From Candidatus Saccharimonadota bacterium (GTDB lineage: Bacteria > Patescibacteriota > Gracilibacteria > Absconditabacterales > Absconditicoccaceae), in assembly GCA_965231145.1 (NCBI GenBank), contig OZ246420.1, positions 1 through 32,000 of the forward strand: a DNA stretch of 32,000 nucleotides, given 5' to 3'. Made by a program: the position numbers and the translations under genes. The notes under the pieces are model-generated. The model ran no database searches and was not told the origin of the DNA. It saw nothing but the letters and a program-made list of their open reading frames with translations. Shown piece by piece: positions 635-32,000 of this stretch (position 1 is its first letter; each line of letters starts with the position of its first letter).

Positions 635-1072
635 TTATTGGGTTGATATGCCTCCTGAAACGTCAGTAGAGCTACCAGCATATGAACATCCTGCTATCTG
701 CGCGAGAGCGTCAAATGTTTGTTCTCCTTCGTATTTTTGTCCCTGATAAATCCATGTTGGATATCCTTTTACACCTGCTATGTTACACTTTACAGCGTCG
801 GTTGTACATTCGATATAGTCTATCTTAGAAAATGATGTACCAAACATTTCTTTCTGCGCCTTACAGTGAGGACACCGACTTGCTCCATACATCTTTACTC
901 CCTTGTCTGTCAGACACTGGGCAAGAGCATCGACCTGAGCAGGACTTACTGCTGGAGCAGCCTCCTTTGAATTGGCTTTTACGATCCAGATAAGAGCGCC
1001 TATGAAGAGGGCAGCAAGAACAACAATGAGTATGATATTGTTGTTTTTCTTTTTATGAGAGTGTCTCAACAT
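635..1072 (-). CDS. Membrane-anchored thioredoxin-fold protein with a CPHC motif, resembling the Trx-like domain fused to bacterial VKOR
   Basis: The track ORF is 635..1075 with a GTG start, and the first ATG is at 1072. It has an N-terminal TM helix (IILIVVLAALFIGALIWIV). The domain reads KMYGAS-x-CPHCKAQKEMFG ... GVKGYPTW, where x is a CGG codon (875-877) at the conserved Trp of WCxxC. The stop is TAA. Confidence 0.8.
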   Translation of the reverse strand: MLRHSHKKKNNNIILIVVLAALFIGALIWIVKANSKEAAPAVSPAQVDALAQCLTDKGVKMYGASRCPHCKAQKEMFGTSFSKIDYIECTTDAVKCNIAGVKGYPTWIYQGQKYEGEQTFDALAQIAGCSYAGSSTDVSGGISTQ

Positions 1073-2070: not shown

Positions 2071-2487
2071 TTAAATCTGATCTAAGAGCGCTTCTGCTGC
2101 CTGGTCTTCCGCAGCATCACTTTGAGCTTCCTGTTGCTTAATGTTTTCTACCTGCTTCACATAACCCATTTCCTGCCACTTCATGAGATACTTTTTCTTT
2201 ATTTCAACTTTCTTTTCTTCATATTTCTTTTCTATCTCTTCGAGTTTCTGTTTTTCTCTCGTGAGAATATCTTCCAATTTTGCTATCTGCTCATCATTCA
2301 TGAGCGGCAAAAGATTGAACCAGCTTTGCTTTTCCTCAGCTTTCTCTATCGATCTCGACTGGAGGAGCATGGTGATAAGCTGTGGTTTCTTTTCAACAAA
2401 CTGATCGGGAATGATATATTGTGCTGCAAGATCCCGAACAGCCTGTGGAAGGCTTTTTTGTATCAATTGGATGTTTGTTGTAGCCAT
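2071..2487 (-). CDS. Hypothetical protein, Lys/Glu-rich with a probable coiled coil
   Basis: This is a 138-aa ORF from ATG to TAA. It sits 3 nt downstream of the previous gene in the pilT-pilin gene string. It contains a charged heptad-like segment (KLEDILTREKQKLEEIEKKYEEKKVEIKKKY). I recognise no family. Confidence 0.55.
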   Translation of the reverse strand: MATTNIQLIQKSLPQAVRDLAAQYIIPDQFVEKKPQLITMLLQSRSIEKAEEKQSWFNLLPLMNDEQIAKLEDILTREKQKLEEIEKKYEEKKVEIKKKYLMKWQEMGYVKQVENIKQQEAQSDAAEDQAAEALLDQI

Positions 2488-2490
2488 GCT

Positions 2491-2682
2491 TTAAGACATT
2501 TTTTGGATAAAGTTTTCTAAGTCGCGATCTGCCGCAAGAGAGGAAGATTTTTTTTCATTATCTGACTTTTGCTGGATCGTAGCGATCTTTTTATATGATT
2601 GCAATGCTTTCTTTTTCATTTCTCTTATCTTTTTAAGAGATGTGTGCCCACTTCCTGTGGGTGCGCTAAAGATTTCTGTCAT
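2491..2682 (-). CDS. Hypothetical small basic protein
   Basis: This is a 63-aa ORF. Its ATG (2680-2682) overlaps the pilT TAA stop (2682-2684) by one base, giving the TAATG coupling arrangement. I recognise no family. Confidence 0.45.
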   Translation of the reverse strand: MTEIFSAPTGSGHTSLKKIREMKKKALQSYKKIATIQQKSDNEKKSSSLAADRDLENFIQKMS

Positions 2683-3764
2683 TATTTTTGTGATGGGTCA
2701 CCCATGATAAATCCTAGAGCGCTTGGATCAACAATTCCCTTGTCGATAAGTCTCTGTGCATATTGCTTCATAGAGATCATACCATGTGTATTGTTTGTTT
2801 CGATAATATTATCGATCTGAGAGATAGCGCGCTTCGCAATGTTATTTTTTGTTGCAAGCGTGTTAATCATAAGTTCATAGACTCCAACTCTCGACTTCCC
2901 GTCTGCACTTTTCACAAGAAATTGAGAAAGAACGCAATTGAGAGCATCTGAAAGTCTACTTGCGATACTGTCCTGAATCTCAGGAGAAAAGAATGAGATG
3001 AATCTGTTCACCGTAAGCGATGCAGATGAGGTATGTAGTGTAGAGAATACTAAGTGTCCGGTTTCAGCAAGAGCGATAGCCGCTTCTGCTGTTTCCTTAT
3101 CACGAATTTCTCCGACGAAGATCACGTTTGGATCTTCACGCATCGTTGCCCTGAGGGCGTTCAGGAATGACCACGTATCATGACCAACCTCTCTTTGAGA
3201 AATAATAGACTTCTGAGGCTTAAAGACAAATTCAATTGGGTCTTCGATGGTGATGATATTTTCCGATCTTGTTACGTTGATGTGCTCTATCATTGAAATG
3301 ATCGATGTTGATTTACCAGACCCTGTCGGACCTGTAACGAGGATAAGTCCGGTCTTCTTTGAAAGGATTTTCTGCTTAATTGTATCTGCCATATCAGCAA
3401 ACATGAGATCACTTACCTGTTTTGCAACAGAGTTGATCTTTCTCATGACGATACCGATTTTTCCAAGCTTGAAGTATGCATTGACTCTGTAAGGAGTTCC
3501 ATCCATAGAAATATATGAAAAGTCTGCTTCTTTATCACCTACAAATTTTTCATACGCTTTCTGGTTTCACTTCATGAGATGCTTCACCATGATCTCTACA
3601 TACTCTTCAGCGATCTTATTTGTCTTGTCGTACTTCTGGATCTCTCCATTGACACGAAAAGCAATATACTCGTCAGATCAGATGTGAATATCAGAAACCG
3701 CTTCATTCGAAGAAATTTGCGAAAGAATTGCCTCGATATTCACTTCTTTTTCGAAATTTACCAT
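2682..3764 (-). CDS. pilT: Type IV pilus retraction ATPase PilT
   Basis: Track ORF 2682..3506 extends upstream through two in-frame TGA codons (3567-3569, 3678-3680) to ATG 3762-3764, giving 360 aa. Motifs seen are Walker A (LVTGPTGSGKSTS), the Asp box (IITIEDPIEF), Walker B (VIFVGEIRD) and the His box (GHLVFSTLHT). The N-terminal SDIHI-G-SDEYIAFRVNG matches the PilT N-domain. Confidence 0.9.
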
Positions 3765-4292: not shown

Positions 4293-5555
4293 TTAGCGCA
4301 AATAAAACATCGGAACAACATCTTTTACTACATCAATAATCTTTCATTCTTTCTCAATAACCGGCACGAATTCTCTCCAAAAAATAGGAATCTTTTCGTT
4401 GAGCATCCGCTTCTTTACCCTTTTTCCCTTATAGATATCTCCTGACTTACTATAGCGAATTACTCATCCCTTCCACAGGGGATTGTTTTTTATTTTCATA
4501 CTATCAAAATAAAGGTATTTCTCTTTTCATGTTATCTTCAGGATCTCATCATTTTTATACTCCCGGAAATCTTTTTTCCCATTGATTGCGTAGAGCTTAC
4601 CATGCGAATGAAAGAAGAAAACTCCTGCGAGAAACTTATATCCATCGTTACTGGTATTACTAAAGCGTGTCCATTCTGCAAGAGTTTTTTGTGATACATG
4701 TTTGTATATACCAAGCTGCTGAAAGAGAAATATCCAATCTGTTTCTGTATACTCATTTACTCTTCGTGGAGATCTTTGTGTTATTTGATAGCTGAATGAT
4801 GCTCCTCGATTGGGATGCGTGGGCCTTTGGACTATAGCTAAGTGATCATTATTTCTTTCAATGTCCATGCGCTCGATTTGCCTATAGATAAGCGCCCAGC
4901 TTTCGTACCATTTATTTTGGGGAGAAAGCACACTCATTTGAGGAAAGATATCATTTCTCAATGCGTTTCTTATCGTAAGAGAAGAATTTTTATTGGTTGG
5001 ATCGAGAAAATATGGCATGTTGTGTACATCGCAAAGCTCTTGAATATATCGCTTCTGTAAGCTGATAAGCGGACGTAAGCGAAACAAACCATCTGAATAA
5101 TCACGAAAGGTCATGTTACCTAAGCCATGAAGGCTTGTTCCGCGAAGAATATTCATAAAAGATGTTTCTATGCGATCGTCAAGATGGTGTCCTGTTACGA
5201 TATAGATACTTTTTTCTTTTTTCGCAACTTCTTTGAAAAATCTCATTCTCAGATCACGCAAGATAGTCTCTTTATGTCACTGACGAGGCTTATTGGTATT
5301 ATAATAGATATGATAGTTTTCATATAACTTAAATATTTTCTGTAGCTCCTTATCTGACTCTTTTCTTTGTCCATGATGAAAATGAGCAATGATAAGAAGC
5401 TGCTGATCCCAACCTTTTTGACGATAAAAATCCTGGAGAACAGCAAAAGCAAGGCTACTATCGGGTCCACCCGACAGACCTATGATAAGCTTAGTTGGAC
5501 TTATAAGCAGCTTATCAAGTTCTGAAAATATTTTGTCTTTTTCAGGAAAATGCAT
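4293..5555 (-). CDS. tilS: tRNA(Ile)-lysidine synthase TilS
   Basis: Track ORFs 5277..5555 and 4527..5261 share a frame and are split by TGA. The TGA at 4527-4529 is also read through, to TAA 4293-4295, giving 420 aa. Motifs seen are the PP-loop (GLSGGPDSS), TGHHLDDRIETSFMNILRG, and a TilS C-terminal domain (KGKRVKK-x-MLNEKIPIFWREFVPVI). Confidence 0.9.
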
Positions 5556-7698: not shown

Positions 7699-9507
7699 AT
7701 GAAAAAAAGAAATAAGATAATATATGGTTCTTTGCTCGTTATCCTTATAGGGATGGGTATTGCTCTGAGTCAAAAGAAAGTTGACAATACCGCGGAAACA
7801 GAGAAGCAGAAGTTTTTTATCGTGACACAGGCGATCGGAAAAGAAGCACAATGATCTATTAAAAAAACTGCGACAGTGCAGGCTGCGAGTGATATCACTA
7901 TCACTGCTCAGATTGCAGGCCGCGTCAATAGTACCAATGTTGCGATCGGGCAAAAAGTAAATCAAAAACAACTTCTTATCTCCTTGGTAGATAGCGCAGG
8001 AACATATACGCTCAACGCACAGAGAGCAAGCCTTTCAGTGCAGTCTGCGGCAAATGCATTTACTGTCAATCAGCAGAACCTTGAGAAACAAATTCAAGAT
8101 GCGACACTTTCTTATCAGAAAACAACAGTATCGAGCGATAATAGTATTTTAGCAAATAGCAATAGCAGCGCTCAGTTACAGGTAAAACAGCTTGAGCAAA
8201 ATCTTGCAAAAGCTCGTATAGATTATGATATTAAAATCAAAAATGACGAACAAACACTTCAAAATTATCTCACTACGGCTAAAAATGTTTATAGTGATGT
8301 GACAAATCTCATGCTTGATGTGATAGACCAAGCAGACAAATTTCTCGGATATAGTCTTATCAATAGTCATCTCAATAATGGCTTTGAAATATATATTGGA
8401 GTCAAAGACGACAATACAAAATATCTCGCAGAACAAAAACTTGCAGAACTCATGAGGCAGAAAGACACACTCCAAGCTCTAGGCAACAATATCACATTGC
8501 AGAATATTACTGACTATCTTTCACAATATAAAAAGATCGTCGATACGATCAATGAAATGACAACTGCTATGAAAAATGTACTTAATGCAACAATTGTATG
8601 AGGAACACTTTCACAAGCAGGTCTGGATGGTTATATCTCAAGTTTCTGAGCACTTCAGTCAAAGGCGAGTGGTATATCTTCATCGATTACTACACAGGTA
8701 AATAGCATCAATTCATTTGTTACAACCTATAAGGACAACCAAAATTCTTTGAAAAAACAGATTGAACTTCTTGAAACCCAGGTGGACGTGACTACGAAAC
8801 AGATCGAAGAGTGAAGTAAAAACGCTTCATATAATCTCGAACAAAGTAAAAATAATCTTAATTTTCTCTCTAACACGAGAGATACTAATCTCAATAGTTT
8901 GCGTAACTCTCTCAGTCAGGCTCAGGTTGCTTATCAAGAGGCTCAATTGGCTCTTAGTAAGTTGTCTATCGTCGCTCCTATCCCAGGCATTATCGGTGAA
9001 GTGCTTGTAGACAAAGGACAAGATGTTTCTCCAGGTACGCCACTTATAAAAATGGTATCAGAAGGAAAAGAAATTATGATAAGGGCTACAGCAAATGAAA
9101 AAGAGTATGTTATGCTTGGACAAGATGTAGAGATTGTAGCAGAATGAAAGAGTTTTTCATGAACAGTTACAGAAATAGGGTCAGTTACTGATGACACAGG
9201 AAATTATGTTATAAAAGTAAGAATAAGTGATGATGCTGATATTGATATAGGAAGCTTTGTCGATGTGATGATACCTCTTCAACAATGAAACAGCGTCATT
9301 CCACTGAAGTCGGTAAATATCGTAGACAATAACAGATGACAAATATTTTTATGGAACGGAGCGTCTATCGAAATGAAAACGATTTCACTAGGAAGTGTAT
9401 ATGGTGATGGTATCGAAGTGACAGAAGAGCTTCCGGAAGATTCAGAACTTATCATTTCTGATATTAGTAATTATGATCCAGAAAAAATGATACTTGAAAA
9501 AAAATAA
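7699..9507 (+). CDS. Efflux periplasmic adaptor / membrane fusion protein (HlyD/RND MFP family), long form
   Basis: Track ORFs 7876..8601 and 8899..9147 share a frame. Read through the in-frame TGA codons from ATG 7699 to TAA 9505-9507, the protein is 602 aa. It has an N-terminal TM anchor (IIYGSLLVILIGMGIAL). Lipoyl-like motifs are IAGRVNSTNVAIGQKVNQKQLLISL and IVAPIPGIIGEVLVDKGQDVSPGTPLIKM. A long Gln/Asn-rich coiled-coil hairpin lies between them. Confidence 0.85.
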
Positions 9508-9530: not shown

Positions 9531-12500
9531 ATGAGAGAAACAGTAAAACAGCATATTGAGAAAATAGAAAATACATGGTTTTGATGGTGGGTGAAAAATT
9601 ATAAAGTATCATTTCTTCTGATAGCACTACTTATCGGTTATGGTACTTTTTCGCTTATACGTATTCCAAAGGAGTCGACACCAGACATTCCTTTTGGTAT
9701 TGTTCAAATAACGACTATCTATCCTGGAGCAAATCCTGTAGATATAGACAGCATTATTACGCAAAAAATCGAAGACGAGATAGAAAATATGCAGGAAATA
9801 GATGCCATGGATTCGAGGTCGTCTCTTGGTGTATCAAATATTACACTGACACTTAAAAGTAGTGTTGACACGAAAGCATTCATTAGCGATATAAAAACGA
9901 AGATAGATAACATCCCTTTTGTGGATGATATAAAAGATCCGGTCGTCTCAGAGATATCAAGTGACAATACCGTTCTCTTTCAGATGATTGCATATGCCCC
10001 GAAAAAAGATTTTACGCTCAATCAAGTAAGATCTCTGGGTATGAATCTGAAAAAAGAAATCAAAGGGAAGGAGTGAATAGTAGACGTTACTATCGGTGGT
10101 GTAGCAGATGATTCTGATTATGATCTTTCTGTGCTTCTTAATGATCAAGCGTTGGAAAATTATAATCTTAGTATCGCCCAAGTAGTAAACGCGATAAGAG
10201 GATACAACCAAAACCTGCCACTCGGAAATCATGAGCTTGGAGAGTTCTCGTATGATTATAGGATAGATAATGAAATCTCATCACTAGACGAACTAAGTAA
10301 TATTCCTATCGCTATAAACGGAGGAAACGACTATATAAGTCTTTCTGATATCACAACCATACGCAGGGACTATAAGAGTTCTGCGGTTGTGTGGTGAGGT
10401 GTTTATAACTCATCAGATAACTATGCAGTATCGGTAACGATTTTTAAAGAAAAAAATACGAATGTTTTTAGTAGTGCAAAAAAAGCGAAAGCTTTCATAG
10501 AAAAAACACTGAAGAAGCCAATCTATACATGACTTTCATTTGAATACACAATGGATTTGTCAGATGTAATTATCGATGACTATAAATCGCTTGGGTCAAA
10601 TGCTGTCAGCTCAGTACTTCTTGTTTTGGCTATTACGGCGCTTTTCATTGGACTAAGGCAGTCACTCATCGCAACGCTTGGTATGATCATTGCATTCTTC
10701 ATCACATTTATCGTGCTGGATCTGATGGGAATGACACTGAATTTTTTGACAAACTTTAGTCTTATCTTGGCGTTCTGATCCGGCATCGACACGGTTATCG
10801 TCTTCATTGAAGCTGCGCGTGAAAACATGAAAAGAGGATATAATCCTAAAAGCGCAATACTCCTTGCGGTCAACACATATAAAACACCGAACATCAATAC
10901 ATCTCTGATCAACCTCGTAGTGTTTATACCAATGCTTGTACTTCCAGGAGTAACAGGAAAATTTCTTTCATATATTCCTATCACCATCTTTACGACTCTC
11001 TTGGGAAGTCTTTTCTTGGCGTTGACGGTAAATAATGCGATGTTTACAAAGCTCAATAAGAAGCGGAACTATTACTATGAAGAAGATGAAACATCGGAGA
11101 TGATCATTAGCGACGTAGAAAGAGAACTGCTTGAAGAAGAGAGAAAGTGAAAAGAAGTAAGAAAGAGAACAACAGAACCGTGGTTTGAAAAGATGCTCGA
11201 CAAGTATCTTACAGCGCCATATATTCATATATTGAAAAAGACGATCGATCGTAAGAGTTGGAGAAAAATATCTATCTGGGCTCCGATTGCTATCCTTATC
11301 GCCACATTCATTTTTCTTTCGCCAAATATTGGATTTAAGCTTTTCCCTTCGGGAGATAATCCATTTATCACCTATGCTATTGAAGGAAAACAGTGACAAA
11401 CAACCGAATCTATGGCTATGGCTGTTTCATGAATAGATAGAGCGATTGCTTCGATCCCAGAACTAAAGAGTTATGAGATTACGATTAACAAACATGTTGT
11501 AGATCTGTCGATTATCCTCACGAAAAAAGATGAGAGAAAGAGAGATAGCTTTGCGGTCGAAGAAGACATTAAGAAGAGACTTGTATATCTAAAAGAGGAA
11601 GGATATAAGGTGGAAGGTAAAGTACAAGCGGGAGGTCCTCCAGTCGGTAAAGCAGTTGGTATAAAACTTGTTGCAGAAAATACCGATCAGCTTACAACAC
11701 TGAAACAAGTGAGTCAGGACTTTGAAACATATCTTCGTTCATTAACTGGAACGATAAATGTAGGAAACTCAAGTACTAATACTCCATGACAATTCTCGGT
11801 AAAATTTGATAAGGCAAAACTTGCGCAGCTTGGACTGACTCCACAAGACTTTCAGTCAGAGCTCTATGCGGCGCTCAATGGAACAAAAGCCGGAACGATA
11901 CAGATAGAAAATATCGAAAGAGATATCGTCGTAAAAGTGGCTTCCTTTGATCAAAGTTTTTCTCCAGAGCATATGAGAAACTTTGTGGTGCAGACCAGGA
12001 AGGGAGAGATGGCCTTGTCGGCTGTTGGAGAGGTAAGTATAGATCCGTCACTTGCTTCTATTAGCAGGGTGGATGGAGATGTTACTATTACGGTTGACTC
12101 AGATCTTGAGTCAGGACTTGCGCCTACAGCCTTTCAGCCAAAACTTATTGAATACGCAGAAAAGTATGAGTTTCCTCAGTGAATATCTTATAAGGAAAGT
12201 GGAGAAAACCAGGAAAATGCTGAGCTTATCCAGGCTACCATCATGGCGTTCTTCGTTGCTCTATTCTTGGCATTTGCTATCTTGGTGTATCAGTTTAACT
12301 CATTTAGTAAGCCGATGATAGTGCTCTATAGTATTATCACAGCGTTACTCTGAGCAAACATCGGACTCTATGTGACAGGTAATCCATACAGTATGTCATT
12401 TGGTATCGGATTTATCTCGCTTATCGGAGTGATCGTCAATACTGCGATCTTCTTAGTAGACAGGATCAATGAAAATCTGAAGAACGGCGTATCGATCGAA

Positions 12501-12785: not shown

Positions 12786-14117
12786 TTACTGTTTTGCGTA
12801 CATTGCTTTCGCCCTTTTGCTTCGCTCATAGTGGTCAACGATAGGCTTCGCATATCAGAGGTCATTTTCGAGAGGATTGTGAATTTTCTTTGGATCAATG
12901 TTGCGAAGCTCAGGTATTCGCTTTTTGATATACTCACACTGTGGATCAAATCTTTCCGACTGCAATAGAGGAGAAAATATTCTTAATGGCTTTGGATCCG
13001 CTCCTACGCTCGCTGCTCGCTGTCGATTTCCTATATTTACATTTTCATCGTAATCTAAGAGATAATTTGCAAAGTGTTCTTCTCCCCGACGCCAGTCTAT
13101 CATAAGATCTTTCGTGAGGAATGATGCAACAACCATACGCACACGATTGTGCATCCAGTTTTCTGCCTTCAATTGTCTCATGCCGGCGTCAACCAGAGGA
13201 TATCACGTTTTTCACTCTTTTCGGGCGTCAAAATGTTTTTTGTTATTGTCCCAAGCTAGTTTTCTGCGCTTTTCTAAGAACTCAATTGCTCTGGTTTCGG
13301 GAAAATAAAACATGATATGGTTCCAAAATTCACGCCACGCGAGTTCACTAATAAATACGCTTTCTTGTCCTGCGGTATTTTTCACTGCTTTATACACTTC
13401 TCTGATGCTGAGGAGTCCAAATCTAATATAAGGCGAGAGCCTTGACGATCAGTCTATCGCAGGAAAATTTCTGGTTTCGTGGTAGCGAGAAAAATCGAAT
13501 TCATGAAGCCTTTCGTGCGCAGTAGTAACATCTCGAATAGTATTTTTTTTATAGGAAAGTTTTTTGAAGATGGAGTCGAGAGGAACCATTTCTACCTTAG
13601 GAGAGCTGATCTGAGAAGGCGCCTTATGTATAACAATCTCTTTTGTGGCAAGTTGTTTTTGCCACAGCTTGAAAAAAGGTGTGAATACTTTTCTTTGCGG
13701 AACCTTTTCTAGCGGTACCAGAAAAAAGTCATCGTGAGACGAATGATAGATCTGATTTTTTTTACATCGATCTTGTATGAATGCATCTCTCATGAGAGAT
13801 CATGAACCATAGCTTTTGTTGTAGTAGAGAGCTTCTGCTTTGTGCTCAGTGATAAGCTCAGGGATAATCTTTTTAGGATCTCCATAGCAGACCATAAGGT
13901 ACGATCATCTTTCGCGAAGCTCCTTATCAAGTTCTGTTACCGCATCTACAAGAAATCACACTCTGCTATCATTTTCAGGAAAATGAGAAAGTATGGTTTC
14001 ATCGAAAATAAATACCGGAATTATTTCTTTTGAGTATTTCAATGCCTCAAGCAAACCTGAGTTGTCTGTAAGTCTGAGGTCCTGACGAAACACAAACAAT
14101 GAGCGAGCGTACGTCAT
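12786..14117 (-). CDS. phrB: Deoxyribodipyrimidine photolyase (class I CPD photolyase/cryptochrome family)
   Basis: Four same-frame track ORFs (12855, 13212, 13449, 13956) are joined across TGA codons, giving 443 aa from ATG 14115-14117 to TAA 12786-12788. Matches to E. coli Phr include FISELAWREFW, KE-G-KT-G-YPLVDAGMRQL, NWMHNRVRMVVASFLTKDL and ASVGADPKPLRIFSP. The conserved WQW, AW and W-LPEL Trp residues are encoded by CGA. Confidence 0.9.
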
Positions 14118-14119
14118 AT

Positions 14120-15241
14120 TTATTTTACGAAATGAGGTAATGTAATGACTTTCTGGTTTTTTCCTGCTCGCCATTTTTCTGTTGGCTCCTGCATAAACGG
14201 AGAAGGAACAAGATATGTGGTGTTATGATGACGGAAAAGAAATTTGATAACACGAAGAAGAAATCGTTTGCAGATGAGCAATATAATTTTAAGAGGATTT
14301 TTTGTCTTTCCAACTTGAAGCCAGTAAGATAGAGCCATAGATCCTGCAACTTTCCAGATGTTATATAAGACAGAAGGATATGGAACGTAATATCCCATGT
14401 CATGAAACATCATTCGAATCTTTGTATCATGAGGTATAGCAGTGAGTGGAAGCCATCCGATGTTTCTGATAACGCTATGGCACCATACTATATCTGGCTT
14501 GAAATCTTTTATTTTCTTGCGGAGTTTTCGCCATGTAGCTATATTGAAAAATGTTTTTATGAGACCCGCATACGATAGTTTTTTTGCGCTTCAAAATTTC
14601 TCAACCACAAAACCATGCTGCTCTAAGAGCTTTGTTGCTTCATCGATAAACACTTCAACTCATCAGATTCTTATAGAAAAATCACTCACCATGAGGATGC
14701 GTTTTGCGTGTCCCGCAAGGCTTTTCACCTGTGAAATCCAAGCGTCTGTACTATATGCAGCGAGTCCTAGTTGCTCAGGTCCAATAGGAAATTCATGTTT
14801 CGCCTTGTTGTTTTTGATGATGGTTGATACCAAAGAAAATAATTTTTCTTCGTGAGTTTCTCCAGAGGCTTTTGTTGCGTCGAGCTCATCTATGACAAAA
14901 GGTGCGATACCTCACTTCTTAAATCCGATGACCGGAACTCATGAGCGAAGAGCTTCGAGCGCGCTTAAACCAAATGTCTCTATGACACGAGAAGGCATGA
15001 GACAATAGTCTGCATCAATTAGTTTTTCTTTAATCAACTTGTTATCTGTTCGTCAGTGAAAAAACACATTATTTGGCAAAAGCTCTGAAAGGGCCTCTAC
15101 TGTATTGCTATAGCCTCCTGCGCCATACACATCGAGTGTCCAGTTAGTTATTCACTTTGCATACAAACTAGGAAAAACATCGAGGATGAGGTCGATGCCT
15201 TTTTCGTATTCGAGTCTACCGAAGAAGATAAATTTTGTCAT
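14120..15241 (-). CDS. GT-B fold (GT4-like) glycosyltransferase with its two Rossmann domains in swapped order
   Basis: I translated this by hand. The frame is continuous over 373 aa from ATG 15239-15241 to TAA 14120-14122, with 7 in-frame TGA codons. Residues 1-~115 form the Glycos_transf_1-type C-domain (KFIFFGRLEYEKGIDLIL ... PSRVIETFGLSALEALRS-G-VPVIG, with the ExxxxxxxE motif). The rest resembles a GT4 N-domain (KRILMVSDFSIRI-GG-VEVFIDEATKLLEQHGF ... KPDIVWCHS ... MFHD) and ends in a linker-like KVITLPHFV. Confidence 0.8.
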
Positions 15242-15360: not shown

Positions 15361-16032
15361 ATGAAAAATACTGCTGGTAGAAAAATAATAACTGCCGCTC
15401 CTTATTCAACATCGACCATTCAGCAATATTTGAAAGATAGGGCTGCTTTTGAGGCATGGCAAACTTTGAATGATCAAGGGAAAAAGAAGTCAGAAAATGA
15501 CTGATTTCAGAAGGAAAACAACAAAGAAGCATCAATAAATACACTAAAAGACGGAGATATAGATATTATCATCAGCGGATGTCCACAAGGGCATCAGGTA
15601 TTTTCTCTTATAGAAAATGAAGCGACAGAATATAGTCATTTCTTACAAAACTACGACCACACTTTATATCCAGAGCAGGGGCAGAAATATATTCATCACA
15701 ATAAATATCATGGTTGAGACGAAATATTTATTGCTATGCAGTCGCTAGAAAAAGGAGATAGAAAGTGATGATACGCATGAATAACCTTAAGACTACACAA
15801 CTGATATAAACTTAAACTAGCTTATGAAAAGGCTTTCATGGAAGCTGTGTTTGATCAGTTGGTTGGTGGTGAGAAAGATACGAGTAAATTCTTTGGGAAA
15901 ACAGAAAATGGTCTTATACAGCGAAGAACCGATGATAAAACACATATTCTAAGCATATTAAAAGCTTTTAAGAAGCGGCTTCTTGCGGAAATTAATACAG
16001 GAGAATATTCTTCTTATTTCGAGAAAATATAA
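15361..16032 (+). CDS. Hypothetical protein with no recognisable family
   Basis: The frame is open over 223 aa from ATG 15361 to TAA 16030-16032 when TGA is sense (6 in-frame TGA, one CGA, one CGG). Only the last 64 aa appear in the standard track (15838..16032). A frame this long that is free of TAA/TAG is unlikely by chance in AT-rich DNA. Confidence 0.55.
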
Positions 16033-16035
16033 TAG

Positions 16036-16710
16036 TTACTTCCACAGTCAAATAACAAATTCTCATTTGATGATGAGCTCTTTTTTCGTAATTTTTTCTT
16101 TCATCTCTTGTATGGTTCACATCAGCTTTTGGTCGAACATCTTGCTTATCTCGCGAGCGACAAATATTTTTCCGTCGTATCCGAGCTCTTCGAGCTCATC
16201 AAATAATTTTTCTACTCTATGTACTGACTCATAGAAGAAACATGGTGTATTTGAAACTGTTTCGATCATCATTTTTAATATGGTTTGTCTTCCCTTTTTC
16301 GTTGGGATGAAGCCAAAGTATGCAAAAGTACTTGTGTCGGTATAGGCGCTTACTATGGCAGGAATAAGCGCTGTTGCTCATGGAAGAACTTCAAAGGGCA
16401 GGTTGTTTTCCCGCGCCATCTTAATGAGATTTTTTCCTGGATCAGATAAGCCTGGCGTGCCTGCTTCGCTGGTAACAACCGCATCGTTTTCCTTGAGAAG
16501 ATTTACATAGTGATTGAGTTTTCACTGATCAGTAAAACTTGTGAGAGGAAAAAATTGCTTTCACGTCAGAGAGATCTCATACATGTTCATGAGTTTTTTT
16601 GTTGTCGCTGTGTCTTCACAGAAAAAAATATTCACTTCTTTAAGAAGTCTGAGACCACGAACAGTTATATCTTCTTTGTTTCCTATGGGAGTAGGAACGA
16701 AATAGAGCAT
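16036..16710 (-). CDS. rsmI: 16S rRNA (cytidine1402-2'-O)-methyltransferase RsmI
   Basis: I translated this by hand. It is 224 aa from ATG 16708-16710 to TAA 16036-16038, with 6 in-frame TGA codons. Motifs seen are MLYFVPTPIGNKEDITVRGLRLLKEV, FCEDT, EAGTPGLSDPG, VLP-G-ATALIPA, FYESVHR and AREISKMF. It is absent from the standard-code track, where only spurious opposite-strand ORFs are listed. Confidence 0.9.
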
Positions 16711-17873: not shown

Positions 17874-18243
17874 ATTGAGTGTTGTTGGTTGGAACAATGG
17901 TATGGAAGTGTCTATAAAGAGTCAATCACAAAGAATCCCTTGTTATTTACTGGGTTTTCGGTATACTACGGGTGATTGATGAACCAAAACAGCTGAAAAG
18001 CTATACTACAAAAGCGAAATAGTCGCTATCGTGATCATCTAGTGGGCAAACATAGATTTGCCATATAACTACCAAGTCTTCGGTCACTCTCTCTACTATT
18101 TTCTCTTAGAAGGAGCTTGGTTTATCGGTCATATTACGTGTTGAAATGAGAAGGCGCGAAAATGAGAAAATGTCATAGGTACATTTTTGTATTTTCTTTC
18201 TTTTTTTGCTCATTTCCACTTTTTATCGTTTGATTATTTTTGT

Positions 18244-20046
18244 ATGACACTATTTAAAGATTTTGGCCTGAAACCAGGCATTATGAAAGCAATTGAAAAA
18301 GCTGGCTATACTGAGCCAACACAAATCCAAGCAGAGGTGTGGGAGGCCGCAAAAAGCGGCCAAAACATTGTTGGGCAGTCACAAACAGGGACAGGAAAAA
18401 CAACAGCATTTCTTCTTCCTCTTCTTGAAAAGGCTGACCCAAGAAAGCGTCATCCACAAGTGCTTATCGTAGCTCCTACTCGTGAACTTGTAGAGCAAAT
18501 TCGCGCAGACATTATGAAGCTTACTGAATTCTACACTATGAGATCTCTCGTGCTTATGGGAGGAAAGAAGCGCGAATGGCAAAAGGAAGATCTTGCTCGT
18601 GGACCTCAGTTCATCGTAGCAACCCCAGGAAGACTTATAGAGTTTATGGAGGAAGGATTTCTCGATCCTACACAAATAGAATATTTTGTTCTCGACGAAG
18701 TCGATAGAATGCTTGATATGGGATTTATCGATGATGTGGATCGGATCTGGGATCAGTTAACAAACCTGAAGCAGACGATGACATTTTCTGCAACTATTAA
18801 CAATGAAATTAAAGACGTGATCACAAAGCATTGTACAGATTTTATTAATATTAAAATCTCTGCAACTGTTACGGTAGACGCCATCGACCATACATATATT
18901 GATCTTCCTCTTGCTGATAAGTTTCCAACACTTATGCATCTTCTTGATGAACATAAGTGACAGAAGACTATCATTTTCGCACAGACAAAGAGAAATACAG
19001 AGGTGATTACCAATGAGCTTAAGAAGCACGGATATACATCTGCATATCTCAATGGAGATCTCGATCAGCGCCAGCGTACAAGAGCGCTTGATGCGTTTAA
19101 AAAAGGCATCTGTAAAGTGCTCGTAACAACTGACGTTGCAGCTCGCGGACTCAATATGGATAATGTTGAGCTTGTAGTAAATTTCGAGGTTCCTCGTGAG
19201 CCGGAAAGTTACATCCACCGTATTGGTCGTACAGGTCGTGCAGGGGCAACCGGTAAAGCACTCATGCTTGTTGCACCAGATGAGAAACATCTTATTTACG
19301 AAATAGAAAAAACACAAAAAATAAAGCTTGAAAAGTCTTCAGCTCATGGAGCAAAAGAAGATACAGAAGGAAAGTTTTCTCGTGTACAGCTTGATAAACC
19401 ACTTCCGCCATCAGACAAGAAAAGAAGAATGATGGAAAGAAGAGAAAGAAATGCGGCTGGAGGAAGAAATTGGGGAAATAAATTTGGTGCTTCAAGGTCT
19501 GAAAACAGAGGTGGATACGGTGACCGCGGAGGTAGATCGTTCGGTTCAAGAGATGGCGCAGCTCCAAGAAGCAATGAAGATCGTCCAGCAAGAACATATG
19601 CTCCGAGAGACGCATCAGCACCAAGAACATTCAATAGAGCGCCATCTACAGGAGAGAGAGCAGAGAGCAGAGAACAGAGTTATTCTGCGCCAAGGGCGCC
19701 AAGATCATTTGGTTCAAGAGATGGTGCGGCTCCAAGAAGAGAGCGTCCAAGGCGTGATGAGGCGTGGACTTCAAGAAATTTTGGCAATACAGTAGGCGGA
19801 TACGATGTAGACGCTACTCGCGAGCAAAGATATTTTGGAGAGTCAAAGTTTCTCGGAAGAAAGGCTGCTGACAGAGCAGGGAGAGAGTTTGATCCACATA
19901 AAGGACGTCCAGCGAGACCACAAAGACCTGGTGATAACTTCATCGGTGCTGATCGCGGACCAAGAGCTCCAAGAACGTCAGCTCCAAGAGGAGCTGGTTC
20001 AAGATCTACTGCTCCAAGGCCAAGAGCTCCAAGAAGAGAAGCTTAA
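18244..20046 (+). CDS. DEAD-box ATP-dependent RNA helicase with a long Arg/Gly/Pro-rich C-terminal tail
   Basis: Track ORFs 18187..18960 and 19003..20046 share a frame and are joined across the TGA at 18958-18960 (LLDEHK-G-QKTIIF). The gene runs from ATG 18244 and encodes 600 aa. Motifs seen are the Q motif (GYTEPTQIQ), motif I (GQSQTGTGKT), Ia (PTRELV), TPGR, DEVD, SAT and HRIGRTGRAG. The tail contains two copies of RSFGSRDGAAPR. Confidence 0.92.
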
Positions 20047-21152: not shown

Positions 21153-22169
21153 TTAGATCTTCCGCTGTTTCTTATCTTCCTTTAGCTTATATGCTTTGTA
21201 CAAAAATTTATTTCCGATGATATCATAGCTTCCGGTAAGCTCGTATTTTACACCTCACATGGACTCCTTAAAATGACTTACCGTCACTAATTCGTGTTTT
21301 GGATAGCCTGTTGGAGCTCCACCCATAAGGTCAAATATCTGATAGCCCTCTTGTTTTGCCCGTTTAATAACCTCCCACTTGAGAAAGTTATTTGCTCCTA
21401 TGTTTCCTGCTTTTCTGTCGGTTGCTCCGTACAGATAGATGATTGCGTGAGCGCTCTTATCAAGAAGGTAGATGCTTCCGCTGACGATCTCTCCGCTCGG
21501 AGTTTTTACTAGCATGAGTGTCCCAGCCTTTTGTTTGATGCAGTAGTCTCTGAGAGCATGATACATTGGCTTTGTCAGTACAAAAAAGCTTTTCTTTGAG
21601 GCTGTGCCAGTCCAGATTTTATAGAACTCATCCCATTCTTCGAGCGTGGCGGTTGTCATCTGGAGGTGGTGTCTCTGAGCCTTCTTTATGGCTTGTTTAC
21701 AGTTTGAAGTCACGTCATTCCAGAGCTCATCCTCCTTTTTTCTGAGGTCTATCATGATGGTGCTGTTTGGTAAATTTTCTTTGAACCCTACCTCCAAATT
21801 GAAAAGCTCACGCATCTCCTGCTGAGTAATATTGCGCTTCAGTCTGATGGCTTTTAACACTGTTTCATTTTTATTAATCTTGCATGGAAACCCATCAAAT
21901 GGATCGATAATCCCAAGCTGGAAGAAAAGATCTTCTTTGTTTTTCAGAAATTGCTCTTTAATGTTTTCGATGTCTTTCTTGAGTTGCTCGTGTTTGTCCT
22001 GTATTTCAACTCCTAGTACCTGATACCACTTAAATTTCCATGGCCCTACCTTCTTGTCTCTGATAACGCCAAAATGGCGCTTCCCAAGTAGCTCTACTTC
22101 AAATGTCGGCTTTCTGTACACATCTTTCGTAAGGTCGTATCGAAGCTGTGATTGATAGAAGTTATACAT
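21153..22169 (-). CDS. FemAB/MurM-family peptidoglycan peptide-bridge aminoacyltransferase
   Basis: Track ORF 21255..22190 has a TTG start and ends at a TGA. It continues to TAA 21153-21155 (FKESM-GG-VKYELTGSYD). The start is taken at ATG 22167-22169. The N-terminal motif is FYQSQL-x-YDLTK, where x is CGA at the conserved Trp of FLQSxxW. Core segments are IYLYGATD and GANNFLKWEVIKRAKQEGYQIFDLMG. Confidence 0.85.
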
Positions 22170-23570: not shown

Positions 23571-24632
23571 TTGGTAAATCTTGTAGTATTCAATTATCTG
23601 ATCATTTACGCGGATAAGTTCCAACTTGCGGTACAGACATCTCCAGTGAAAGCTTCTTTCACGAATGTCATGCCTACGGCAAGCGCGGATATAAACGCGC
23701 AGTCTATCATTTTTGATAACAATGATCTTGGTGGCAACCTTACCTATATCGTAAGATCGGGTGACACTATCGAATCTATTGCTGCAGATCTGAATACGAC
23801 AGTAGACAATATTAAGAAAGTAAATAATCTGAAGGGTAACGATCTACGTGCCGGACAAAAATTGACTATCAGTCAATTGCCAGGTATCATTGTTACCATG
23901 CAGGAAGATATAGCGCTCGGAGATTTCATTAGCGCATACGATCTCAGTGAGGTCGATATTAAAACGCTCAACAACATCGCGGACTCAAGAAAGATTATCC
24001 ATAAAGGATGAGAGCTCTTCATTCCTATTAGCGAAAAAGATGCTCAGGACAAAGGTCTCATAGAGAAGCCTGAACCGATTGTTGCACAGCAAAAACCAGA
24101 CGTACCAACAACAAAGCCAGATACAAAGCCAACATCAACAACTACCAATACTCCTGTAACAGCAGCAACCGTTGCCCCATCTCCTAAAAAGGTAGTAGCA
24201 ACAGTAAGTCAGATTGTCGCGTCAGAATGAACAAGTACCATTACCTATAAGAAAGGAACAATCCTTGCAACATGGTACCAAAAAACGACAACAGAAGACG
24301 GATTTGCGGCAGGTTATTGTACAGCCTATGCTGCTCAGAGAAGACCAGATATCTTCAAGAGTGATGTGACATTCCGTGGAAATGCTAAGGAGCGGAAAGC
24401 AAATGCAAAAAGAGCTGGATATACTGTAACTAATACACCATCGAAAGGAGCTATTGTTGTCTACCAACCCGGCCAAGGATGAGCATCTTCATATGGTCAC
24501 GTAGCTATCGTAGAAAATGTAGACGAAGAAAAGGGTCTTATGACTATTTCAGATATGAATGGTCCTGCTGGAAGAGGCGTGGTAACAACTCGTATTGTTC
24601 CATATGGCGAATGAGAAAGTTATATTCCATAA
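23571..24632 (+). CDS. Secreted peptidoglycan hydrolase with LysM repeat(s) and a C-terminal CHAP domain
   Basis: Track ORF 23571..24011 has a TTG start. It continues through 4 in-frame TGA codons to TAA 24630-24632. It has a LysM domain (YIVRSGDTIESIAADLNTTVDNIKKVNNLKGNDLRAGQKLTI), a Pro/Thr/Lys linker and a CHAP domain (AAGYCTAYAA ... GNAKE-x-KANAKRAGY ... YGHVAIVE, with x = CGG). The true start is ambiguous (see findings). Confidence 0.85.
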
Positions 24633-31333: not shown

Positions 31334-32000
31334 TTAATGTGTAAATCCACATAGCTGTCGGTATTGGCGAGCAACTGAGTGGTTGACTGCGCATGTTTCA
31401 AGCATTTGTTGTGCTGCTTGTACAGACGGGAAGTCTTTGTTGATGATCGTCCCGTTGCTACGATTGATCTTTACATAGTTGTTGTATCTTCGTATACCGT
31501 AACGCTTGCCGTTTGGCGCAACAAATACGAGGCGGTTTTGATAGTCGAGGTAGTTGAGTATTCACTGCAATGTGCGGGCGTGTCTTTCTGAGACAACATT
31601 GGTACTGTTTCCTCTGCTAAATGAGAAGATCTGATTGTTTTGCCGGATGGTATACAGCCTTCCATTGAGCGTATAGTAGGTGTCGAGATAGGTGAAGCTG
31701 TTGCTTGTCCACTGAGTTGTGTTGTTTGTTCCCTTAAATACTCTTATGACTTCCTGAGTAAGGAAGTAGAGATATGCGAACTTAGTCCTTTCTGTCGTGC
31801 TCAGTGAGCTATCACGATATCTCTGCCACATGTCTGATGAGACGTTTTGGAGTGAAGCCCTTAGTTTTACCTTTGTATTTGCTCCTTCATCGAACCACAG
31901 ATGGTAAATGAGACCGGTGAAACTTCTATTGAACTCAGCTCTTTGCTGACGACTTGGGATAAAAATGTTTCCCCAATTGTTTCTTTGTTCGTCTAAAAAT
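31334..32000 (-). CDS. Hypothetical protein, partial (the 5' end lies beyond the window)
   Basis: Track ORF 31562..31831 ends at a TGA. I read it by hand through to TAA 31334-31336. The frame stays open upstream to the window edge, with no TAA/TAG over 222 codons. It contains two CGA codons. I recognise no family. Confidence 0.5.

Follow-up and report, generated by a model that had tools for sequence, protein, structure and literature searches.

Codon CGG, together with CGA, is very probably read as tryptophan, and UGA as glycine, in the genome from which the DNA analyzed here derives (the window, a single stretch of 32,000 nucleotides). A CGG at positions 875-877 most likely encodes the conserved active-site Trp of a thioredoxin (Trx)-like protein, and we place the probability of this reading, which is based on sequence comparison, at about 0.9. 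In the proposed scheme both CGA and CGG would have moved from Arg to Trp and UGA would be read as Gly, with Arg left to AGA, AGG, CGU and CGC only. If CGA and CGG have moved in this manner, it follows that the CGG at 875-877 would supply the conserved Trp of the W-C-x-x-C motif. A first-pass annotation of the window had proposed that CGG is read as Trp, and the proposal is now supported by the Trp found at the corresponding positions of VKOR-associated Trx domains and CHAP domains, by the fact that all 48 aligned orthologous codons are CGA, TGG or CGG, and by its agreement with a published code (PMC8629427).

The site of interest lies in a Trx-like protein gene on the minus strand (635..1072), a 145-residue open reading frame (ORF) that contains no in-frame TGA and one CGG, and whose product is identical to a database protein (P0001). 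The minus strand from 863 to 892 reads atg tat gga gca agt CGG tgt cct cac tgt and is followed by aag; the codons around 875-877 translate as KMYGAS-CGG-CPHCKAQKEMFG, and the annotated placement of an in-frame CGG immediately ahead of the WCxxC cysteines agrees with this sequence. The CPHC redox active-site motif itself occupies 863..874 on the minus strand (TGT CCT CAC TGT), and in our alignment (A1) neither its two Cys columns nor its His column varies, while the CGG before the motif is read as Trp (W-C-P-H-C) on the evidence of homologue and orthologue alignments. The protein consists of a basic amino terminus, one hydrophobic or transmembrane helix and a thioredoxin-like domain. In the PDB, Synechococcus VKOR gives the best matches, through its Trx-like domains (3kp9, 3kp8 and 4nv2; E = 4.4e-19 for 4nv2/3kp9), in an alignment that spans CPHC, the ECx(n)C pair and YPTW. 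The VKOR-Trx motif given in the annotation, MYGAYWCPHCQDQKELFG, is correct, and 3kp9 and 4nv2 place W opposite the CGG codon. The score against the Pfam Thioredoxin family is 20 bits, under the cut-off of 23.5. The protein and the Synechococcus VKOR Trx domain (PDB 3KP9, 3KP8, 4NV2) share the pattern MYGA-x-W-CPHC-x-QKE-x-FG, a second Cys pair and YPTW; in contrast to Synechococcus VKOR, the protein here is standalone, with a single amino-terminal transmembrane helix and without a fused VKOR membrane domain. No VKOR membrane domain is present in the 145 residues, nor was a VKOR gene seen among the window ORFs, eight of which were scanned against Pfam. A standalone layout is typical of the CPR and DPANN homologues recovered. 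The product is a putative extracytoplasmic, membrane-anchored Trx-like protein of the VKOR-associated type.

Among 74 homologues retrieved through a word index, the residue preceding CxxC is W in 57, R in 12, F in two, Y in two and T in one. All 12 of the R-bearing homologues fall within the 20 closest matches (63-99% identity), and some equally close relatives carry W. At the nucleotide level, four of six related genomes have CGA before CPHC, one has CGG and one has TGG; CGG is also found in three additional contigs that do not differ from the window at the Trx site. In every relative for which DNA was fetched, AGA, AGG, CGT and CGC are entirely absent from the R position. A further 78 motif matches, in the remaining loci fetched, have TGG; most are from other CPR and DPANN genomes. 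In a broader sample of 150 representatives (clusters at 50% identity) with 159 motif instances, W occurs in 115, R in 10 and K in three, the rest being mixed. Arg or Lys, whose frequent occurrence before CxxC would by the annotation's own terms have counted against its claim, is thus not common there in this family; the column is predominantly Trp, though not invariant. Two of the R-bearing representatives show YPTR in place of the family YPTW, which suggests that these two may also be recoded. A TGA at the Trp position of another locus (L009) was a spurious, out-of-frame regular-expression match and was discarded. Some members of the Trx-like family (P0210-P0228) are long proteins, of up to 951 residues, with two to five tandem Trx-like domains, and these multi-domain members carry N, K, F or Y before CxxC more often than W.

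CGG is rare in frame, as the annotation had claimed: the 9168 codons of 27 confident genes include 14 (15.3 per 10,000), and the two other frames of the same genes contain 80 and 93 CGG triplets. Besides the Trx site, the annotation had listed six in-frame occurrences, all of which are real; the list was incomplete by seven (2434, 4563, 11064, 20932, 21360, 24393 and 31643). Orthologous positions in seven related genomes are available for 12 of the 14 sites. A LysM-CHAP hydrolase has a CGG within its CHAP domain (24393..24395, plus strand; GNAKE-x-KANAKRAGY), where both orthologous codons are TGG and all four PDB CHAP domains aligned have W (GNANNW, GDAADW). This site is a second deeply conserved Trp position. 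In a conserved hypothetical protein (LPQAV-x-DLAAQ; 2434..2436, minus strand), the orthologous codons are TGG in four cases and CGG in two. TilS contains two sites on the minus strand: RVKK-x-MLNEKIP at 4407..4409, with five CGA and one TGG among the orthologues, and KKDF-x-EYKND at 4563..4565, with two TGG, two CGA and one CGG. The 4407 column is Ile in a weak PDB alignment (3a2k), the carboxy-terminal part of which is too weak for use. An RND transporter (LNKK-x-NYYY; 11064..11066, plus strand) has one orthologue, which reads TGG. An F420-ligase-like or CofE-like protein (KAGD-x-IAISEK; Pfam PF01996; 20932..20934, minus strand) has CGG in three orthologues and CGA in one, and a PDB search with this protein gave no match.

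Three further sites lie in columns that vary among distant homologues and are informative through close relatives only. In a photolyase (DWR-x-GEE; 13086..13088, minus strand), the orthologous codons are TGG and CGA, and the PDB column contains W (2e0i), R (1owl) and E (1dnp). In RsmI (IKMA-x-ENNLPF; 16411..16413, minus strand), the orthologues read TGG twice, CGA once and CGG once. The annotation had singled out this site as the one that does not favor Trp, in a variable column; solved RsmI structures do differ at this column (R, I, H), and the orthologous codons do not count against Trp. In a DEAD-box helicase (DDVD-x-IWDQL; 18742..18744, plus strand), three orthologues have CGA and one has CGG, at a PDB column occupied by A, A, D, K and K. 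A FemAB-family transferase on the minus strand contributes two sites, one internal (WEVIK-x-AKQEGY; 21360..21362; orthologues CGA three times, CGG once) and one in its carboxy-terminal tail (KKQ-x-KI-stop; 21162..21164; CGA three times, TGG once). Distant FemAB homologues show an uninformative mixture of W, R, D and Y and probably come from recoded genomes themselves. The remaining two sites, in hypothetical proteins at 15976..15978 (AFKK-x-LLAE, plus strand) and 31643..31645 (RLYTI-x-QNNQIF, minus strand), had no orthologue in the seven related genomes and are therefore uninformative.

Window-wide evidence comes from a codon-by-codon comparison of the 27 window genes with their orthologues in the seven related genomes (L001, L084-L092), at 66-73% mean protein identity. 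In this comparison TGA was translated as Gly, and CGA and CGG were masked as X and hence exerted no pull on the alignment. The 48 codons aligned with window CGG comprise 15 TGG and 33 CGA or CGG (23 CGA, 10 CGG), with no ordinary Arg codon and no other codon. Window CGA has 71 aligned codons, of which 15 are TGG, 41 CGA or CGG and 15 other codons, again with no ordinary Arg codon. Window TGG, with 324 aligned codons, pairs with TGG in 162 cases and with CGA or CGG in 138 (92 CGA, 46 CGG), with one ordinary Arg codon and 23 others. The AGA, AGG, CGT and CGC codons of the window, with 1029 aligned codons, pair with ordinary Arg codons in 791 cases, with TGG in two, with CGA or CGG in none and with other codons in 236. 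CGT is paired with CGC in 112 cases, and none of 372 CGT or CGC codons lies opposite CGA or CGG. If CGG acted as an ordinary Arg codon, the probability that 12 sites would lack any Arg-codon partner is approximately 0.23^12, or roughly 2e-8. Thus, by these pairings, TGG, CGA and CGG form one synonymous set and AGA, AGG, CGT and CGC another. The possibility that CGG columns are Arg-like, raised by the annotation as a check on its own claim, finds no support, as not one of the 48 codons aligned to the 12 window sites is AGA, AGG, CGT or CGC.

The reading of the other two codons is consistent with this picture. Under the standard bacterial code the ORFs of the window are short, and the total length contained in ORFs of at least 100 residues doubles when TGA is read through. 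Among 253 codons aligned with TGA, 111 are GGN and 76 are TGA, and TGA occurs at conserved Gly positions of the photolyase (KE-G-KT-G-YP) and of RsmI (LP-G-A), all of which points to UGA as a sense codon for Gly. Of the 27 gene models, 26 end in TAA and one in TAG. CGA likewise occupies conserved Trp positions and does not behave as a synonym of the Arg codons. In particular, two CGA codons flank a CAA at 13017..13025 on the minus strand, in the conserved W-Q-W of the photolyase (GN-z-Q-z-AAS), where four PDB photolyases have W at both positions. In total, four photolyase CGA codons lie opposite W in each of the four PDB photolyases shown (GN-W-Q-W-AAS, A-W-KEGKTGYP, IKK-W-IPEL).

Most Absconditabacterales carry genes for tRNA(UCG) and tRNA(CCG), lack tRNA(ACG) and contain a tRNA(GCG)-Arg, and their CGR-reading tRNAs fit charging with tryptophan, having G73 and no A20 (PMC8629427). 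By extension from that work, tRNA(UCG), tRNA(CCG) or both would decode CGR after loss of the Arg identity element A20, and would carry Trp identity (G73, A1:U72) such that TrpRS charges them. No CGG-reading tRNA is present in the window, which contains only tRNA-Cys-GCA and tRNA-Ser-UGA, or in 13 loci from the strain and its relatives (170 kb from relatives), and the supplements of a 2026 NAR paper hold no searchable Absconditabacterales tRNA entries. Metagenomes were scanned with a pattern combining a Trp-like acceptor stem and a YCG anticodon, in which the acceptor stem and G73 are imposed by the pattern, and three matches were obtained (L095, L096 and L097). L097 (Ga0210019_1003629), a TGA-recoded contig of 14 kb and GC 0.35, encodes a tRNA(UCG) at 7771-7843 (plus strand) with A1:U72, G73 and U20 rather than A20; U20 and the genomic context are the only features here that the pattern did not impose. 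A TrpRS gene lies 2.5 kb away on the same contig (10328-11497, minus strand), and CGA is frequent in its ORFs (for example, SP-z-z-QAYY). This tRNA illustrates the published mechanism, on a contig that is not demonstrably of the window's lineage.

The other two matches are separate cases. L095, a 2.9-kb soil contig of GC 0.66, contains at 2576-2649 (minus strand) an Escherichia coli-type tRNA-Trp-like body (AGGGGCGTAGCTCAGTTGGTAGAGC..., G73, U20) with anticodon CCG, which is odd in that CGG should be a common Arg codon in a high-GC genome. L096 (ERZ779877; GC 0.27, standard stops) contains at 2934-3007 (plus strand) a tRNA with anticodon CCG, U20 and G73 whose acceptor stem resembles that of tRNA-Trp, and may belong to one of the Firmicute lineages in which CGG is Trp.

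Other readings of the CGG codons must be weighed against reassignment to Trp. The most durable is that reassignment is ambiguous or incomplete, with CGG translated mostly as Trp and partly as Arg, or read by inefficient wobble of a single tRNA(UCG), resulting in mixed products. Among the 10 published Absconditabacterales genomes the CGG call is missing ('?') in five and Arg in one, and the authors of that survey note that ambiguous translation is not excludable without experiments (PMC8629427); the usage of CGG among relatives, from 3 to 59 per 10,000, could be read in the same way. We nevertheless regard mixed decoding as very unlikely, since CGG occurs at Trp positions critical to function (the CHAP GNAxxW motif and the active site of the Trx-like protein), is never found opposite an Arg codon, and in most of the genomes has climbed back to 15-59 per 10,000, a level that would be costly if a sizeable share were misread.

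Retention of the standard code is exceedingly improbable. CGG would then be Arg, the active site would be the variant R-C-P-H-C, and the alternation of CGG with TGG would reflect frequent C-to-T transitions at CpG. This explanation can draw on the database translations of 12 close homologues, which give R, on R in 10 of the 159 representative motif instances, and on Arg at two CGG-aligned columns, those of E. coli RsmI and A. nidulans photolyase. The R translations at the Trx site, however, come only from CGG or CGA. An Arg CGG should also exchange with the dominant synonymous codons, yet AGA, AGG, CGT and CGC make up none of its 48 partners, and the 112 exchanges between CGT and CGC are accompanied by none between CGT or CGC (372 codons) and CGA or CGG. 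Arg-to-Trp replacement at 12 separate conserved sites is implausible, and the occurrence of CGA at invariant photolyase tryptophans is likewise at odds with an Arg reading.

The last alternative is C-to-U RNA editing, which would turn CGG into UGG in the mRNA and thereby yield Trp at the CGG sites with the code and the tRNAs unchanged; mRNA editing of this CGG-to-UGG kind is not known in bacteria. It can hardly be credited here, because CGA readily takes the place of CGG or TGG at a given site, occupies invariant tryptophans and would be edited to UGA, which is read here as Gly and not Trp, so that editing cannot explain the data, and because related genomes encode tRNA(UCG) and tRNA(CCG) with Trp identity features (PMC8629427), as the contig L097 does for tRNA(UCG).

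With CGG and CGA taken as Trp codons, their usage in the lineage can be compared. Per 10,000 codons, the window contains 15.3 CGG, 26.2 CGA and 115.6 TGG, and the seven relatives contain 3-59, 39-78 and 67-105, respectively. The combined share of CGA and CGG among Trp codons is 26% for the window and 34-63% for the seven relatives, in some of which the two outnumber TGG; at 26-63%, it exceeds that of all but one published genome. The relative with the most CGG, represented by a single measured locus (L087), is also the most GC-rich (GC 0.45). The rise of CGA and CGG to major Trp codons in some lineages is a modest addition to the 2021 work, in which the CGR reassignment was described as being at an 'early stage' (PMC8629427). 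In this sub-lineage the reassignment has gone well beyond that stage. It is tempting, though speculative and on balance unlikely, to go further and propose that Trp codons are actively leaving the UGN box and that CGR as Trp is an adaptive escape from the ambiguity created by UGA reassignment and not a neutral codon capture. Under such a model UGG, as the neighbor of a UGA read as Gly, would be open to misreading by tRNA-Gly(UCA) through U34 wobble.

Sense-codon reassignments are very rare in bacteria, and the window displays one clearly, down to single active-site residues. There is also a practical consequence. Public databases place Arg at every CGA and CGG, and have thereby introduced a false R into the WCxxC motif of 12 of the 74 Trx-like homologues. 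Since translation follows the standard code, annotation, family profiles and structure prediction will be systematically wrong at Trp for the phylum. The gene calls for the loci and proteins examined here (L084-L092, P0001-P0020 and P0077-P0083) are often made with the standard code, with CGA and CGG given as R and genes split at TGA; in L087, for instance, the genes for TilS and an RND pump are split in this way.

Two other features of the window deserve mention. In a glycosyltransferase ORF at 14120-15241 (minus strand), the order of the Pfam domains is swapped, Glycos_transf_1 covering residues 3-149 and Glyco_transf_4 residues 193-301. Glycos_transf_1 normally forms the carboxy-terminal half of such enzymes and Glyco_transf_4 the amino-terminal half. 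The swapped order is also seen in a relative (L089, 7456-8613), and the ORF could encode a GT-B enzyme that is circularly permuted, or correspond to two split genes. The DEAD-box helicase (18241-20046, plus strand) has, from about 19400, a low-complexity tail of approximately 200 residues rich in Arg, Gly, Pro and Ser, in which a RSFGSRDGAAPR unit recurs; 40 AGA and 13 CGT codons are present in the ORF that encloses the helicase (18043-20046).

Three known systems bear comparison with the window. In plant mitochondria, CGG also appears in the DNA at conserved Trp positions, and the apparent assignment of CGG to Trp was later explained by C-to-U RNA editing. The window differs in that CGA behaves in the same manner as CGG, and editing to a UGA read as Gly fails to explain this. 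Closer in kind are Anaerococcus and the RFN20 Bacilli (Onthovivens), in which CGG, having become rare in their low-GC genomes, is also Trp; in these Firmicutes, unlike in the window, CGA is still an Arg codon, no tRNA(UCG) is present, UGA terminates translation and CGG remains extremely rare, below 6 per 10,000 (PMC8629427; PMC13092985).

The closest parallel is the code of the Absconditabacterales (candidate division SR1), for which Shulgina and Eddy (eLife 2021; PMC8629427), using Codetta, predicted UGA as Gly and CGA and CGG as Trp. [quoted passage not shown] The window probably derives from a bacterium of the Absconditabacteria (SR1) type; it encodes a DnaX whose named matches are to SR1, Absconditabacterales, Absconditicoccaceae and one Gracilibacteria, all at 44-47% identity, and whose closest relatives are at 70-74% identity. 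The window differs from the published genomes in its GC content of 0.39, just over their range, and in its 15 CGG per 10,000, with up to 59 in its relatives, against fewer than 7. It is similar to them in its low to moderate GC content, in the use of AGA as the main Arg codon, in having CGG rarer than CGA, and in all three inferred assignments, UGA as Gly and CGA and CGG as Trp. Thus, the reassignment of CGG and CGA to Trp has been known for the Absconditabacteria/SR1 since 2021, and the scientific gain beyond that study is small; the combination of meanings inferred for the window is the published one.
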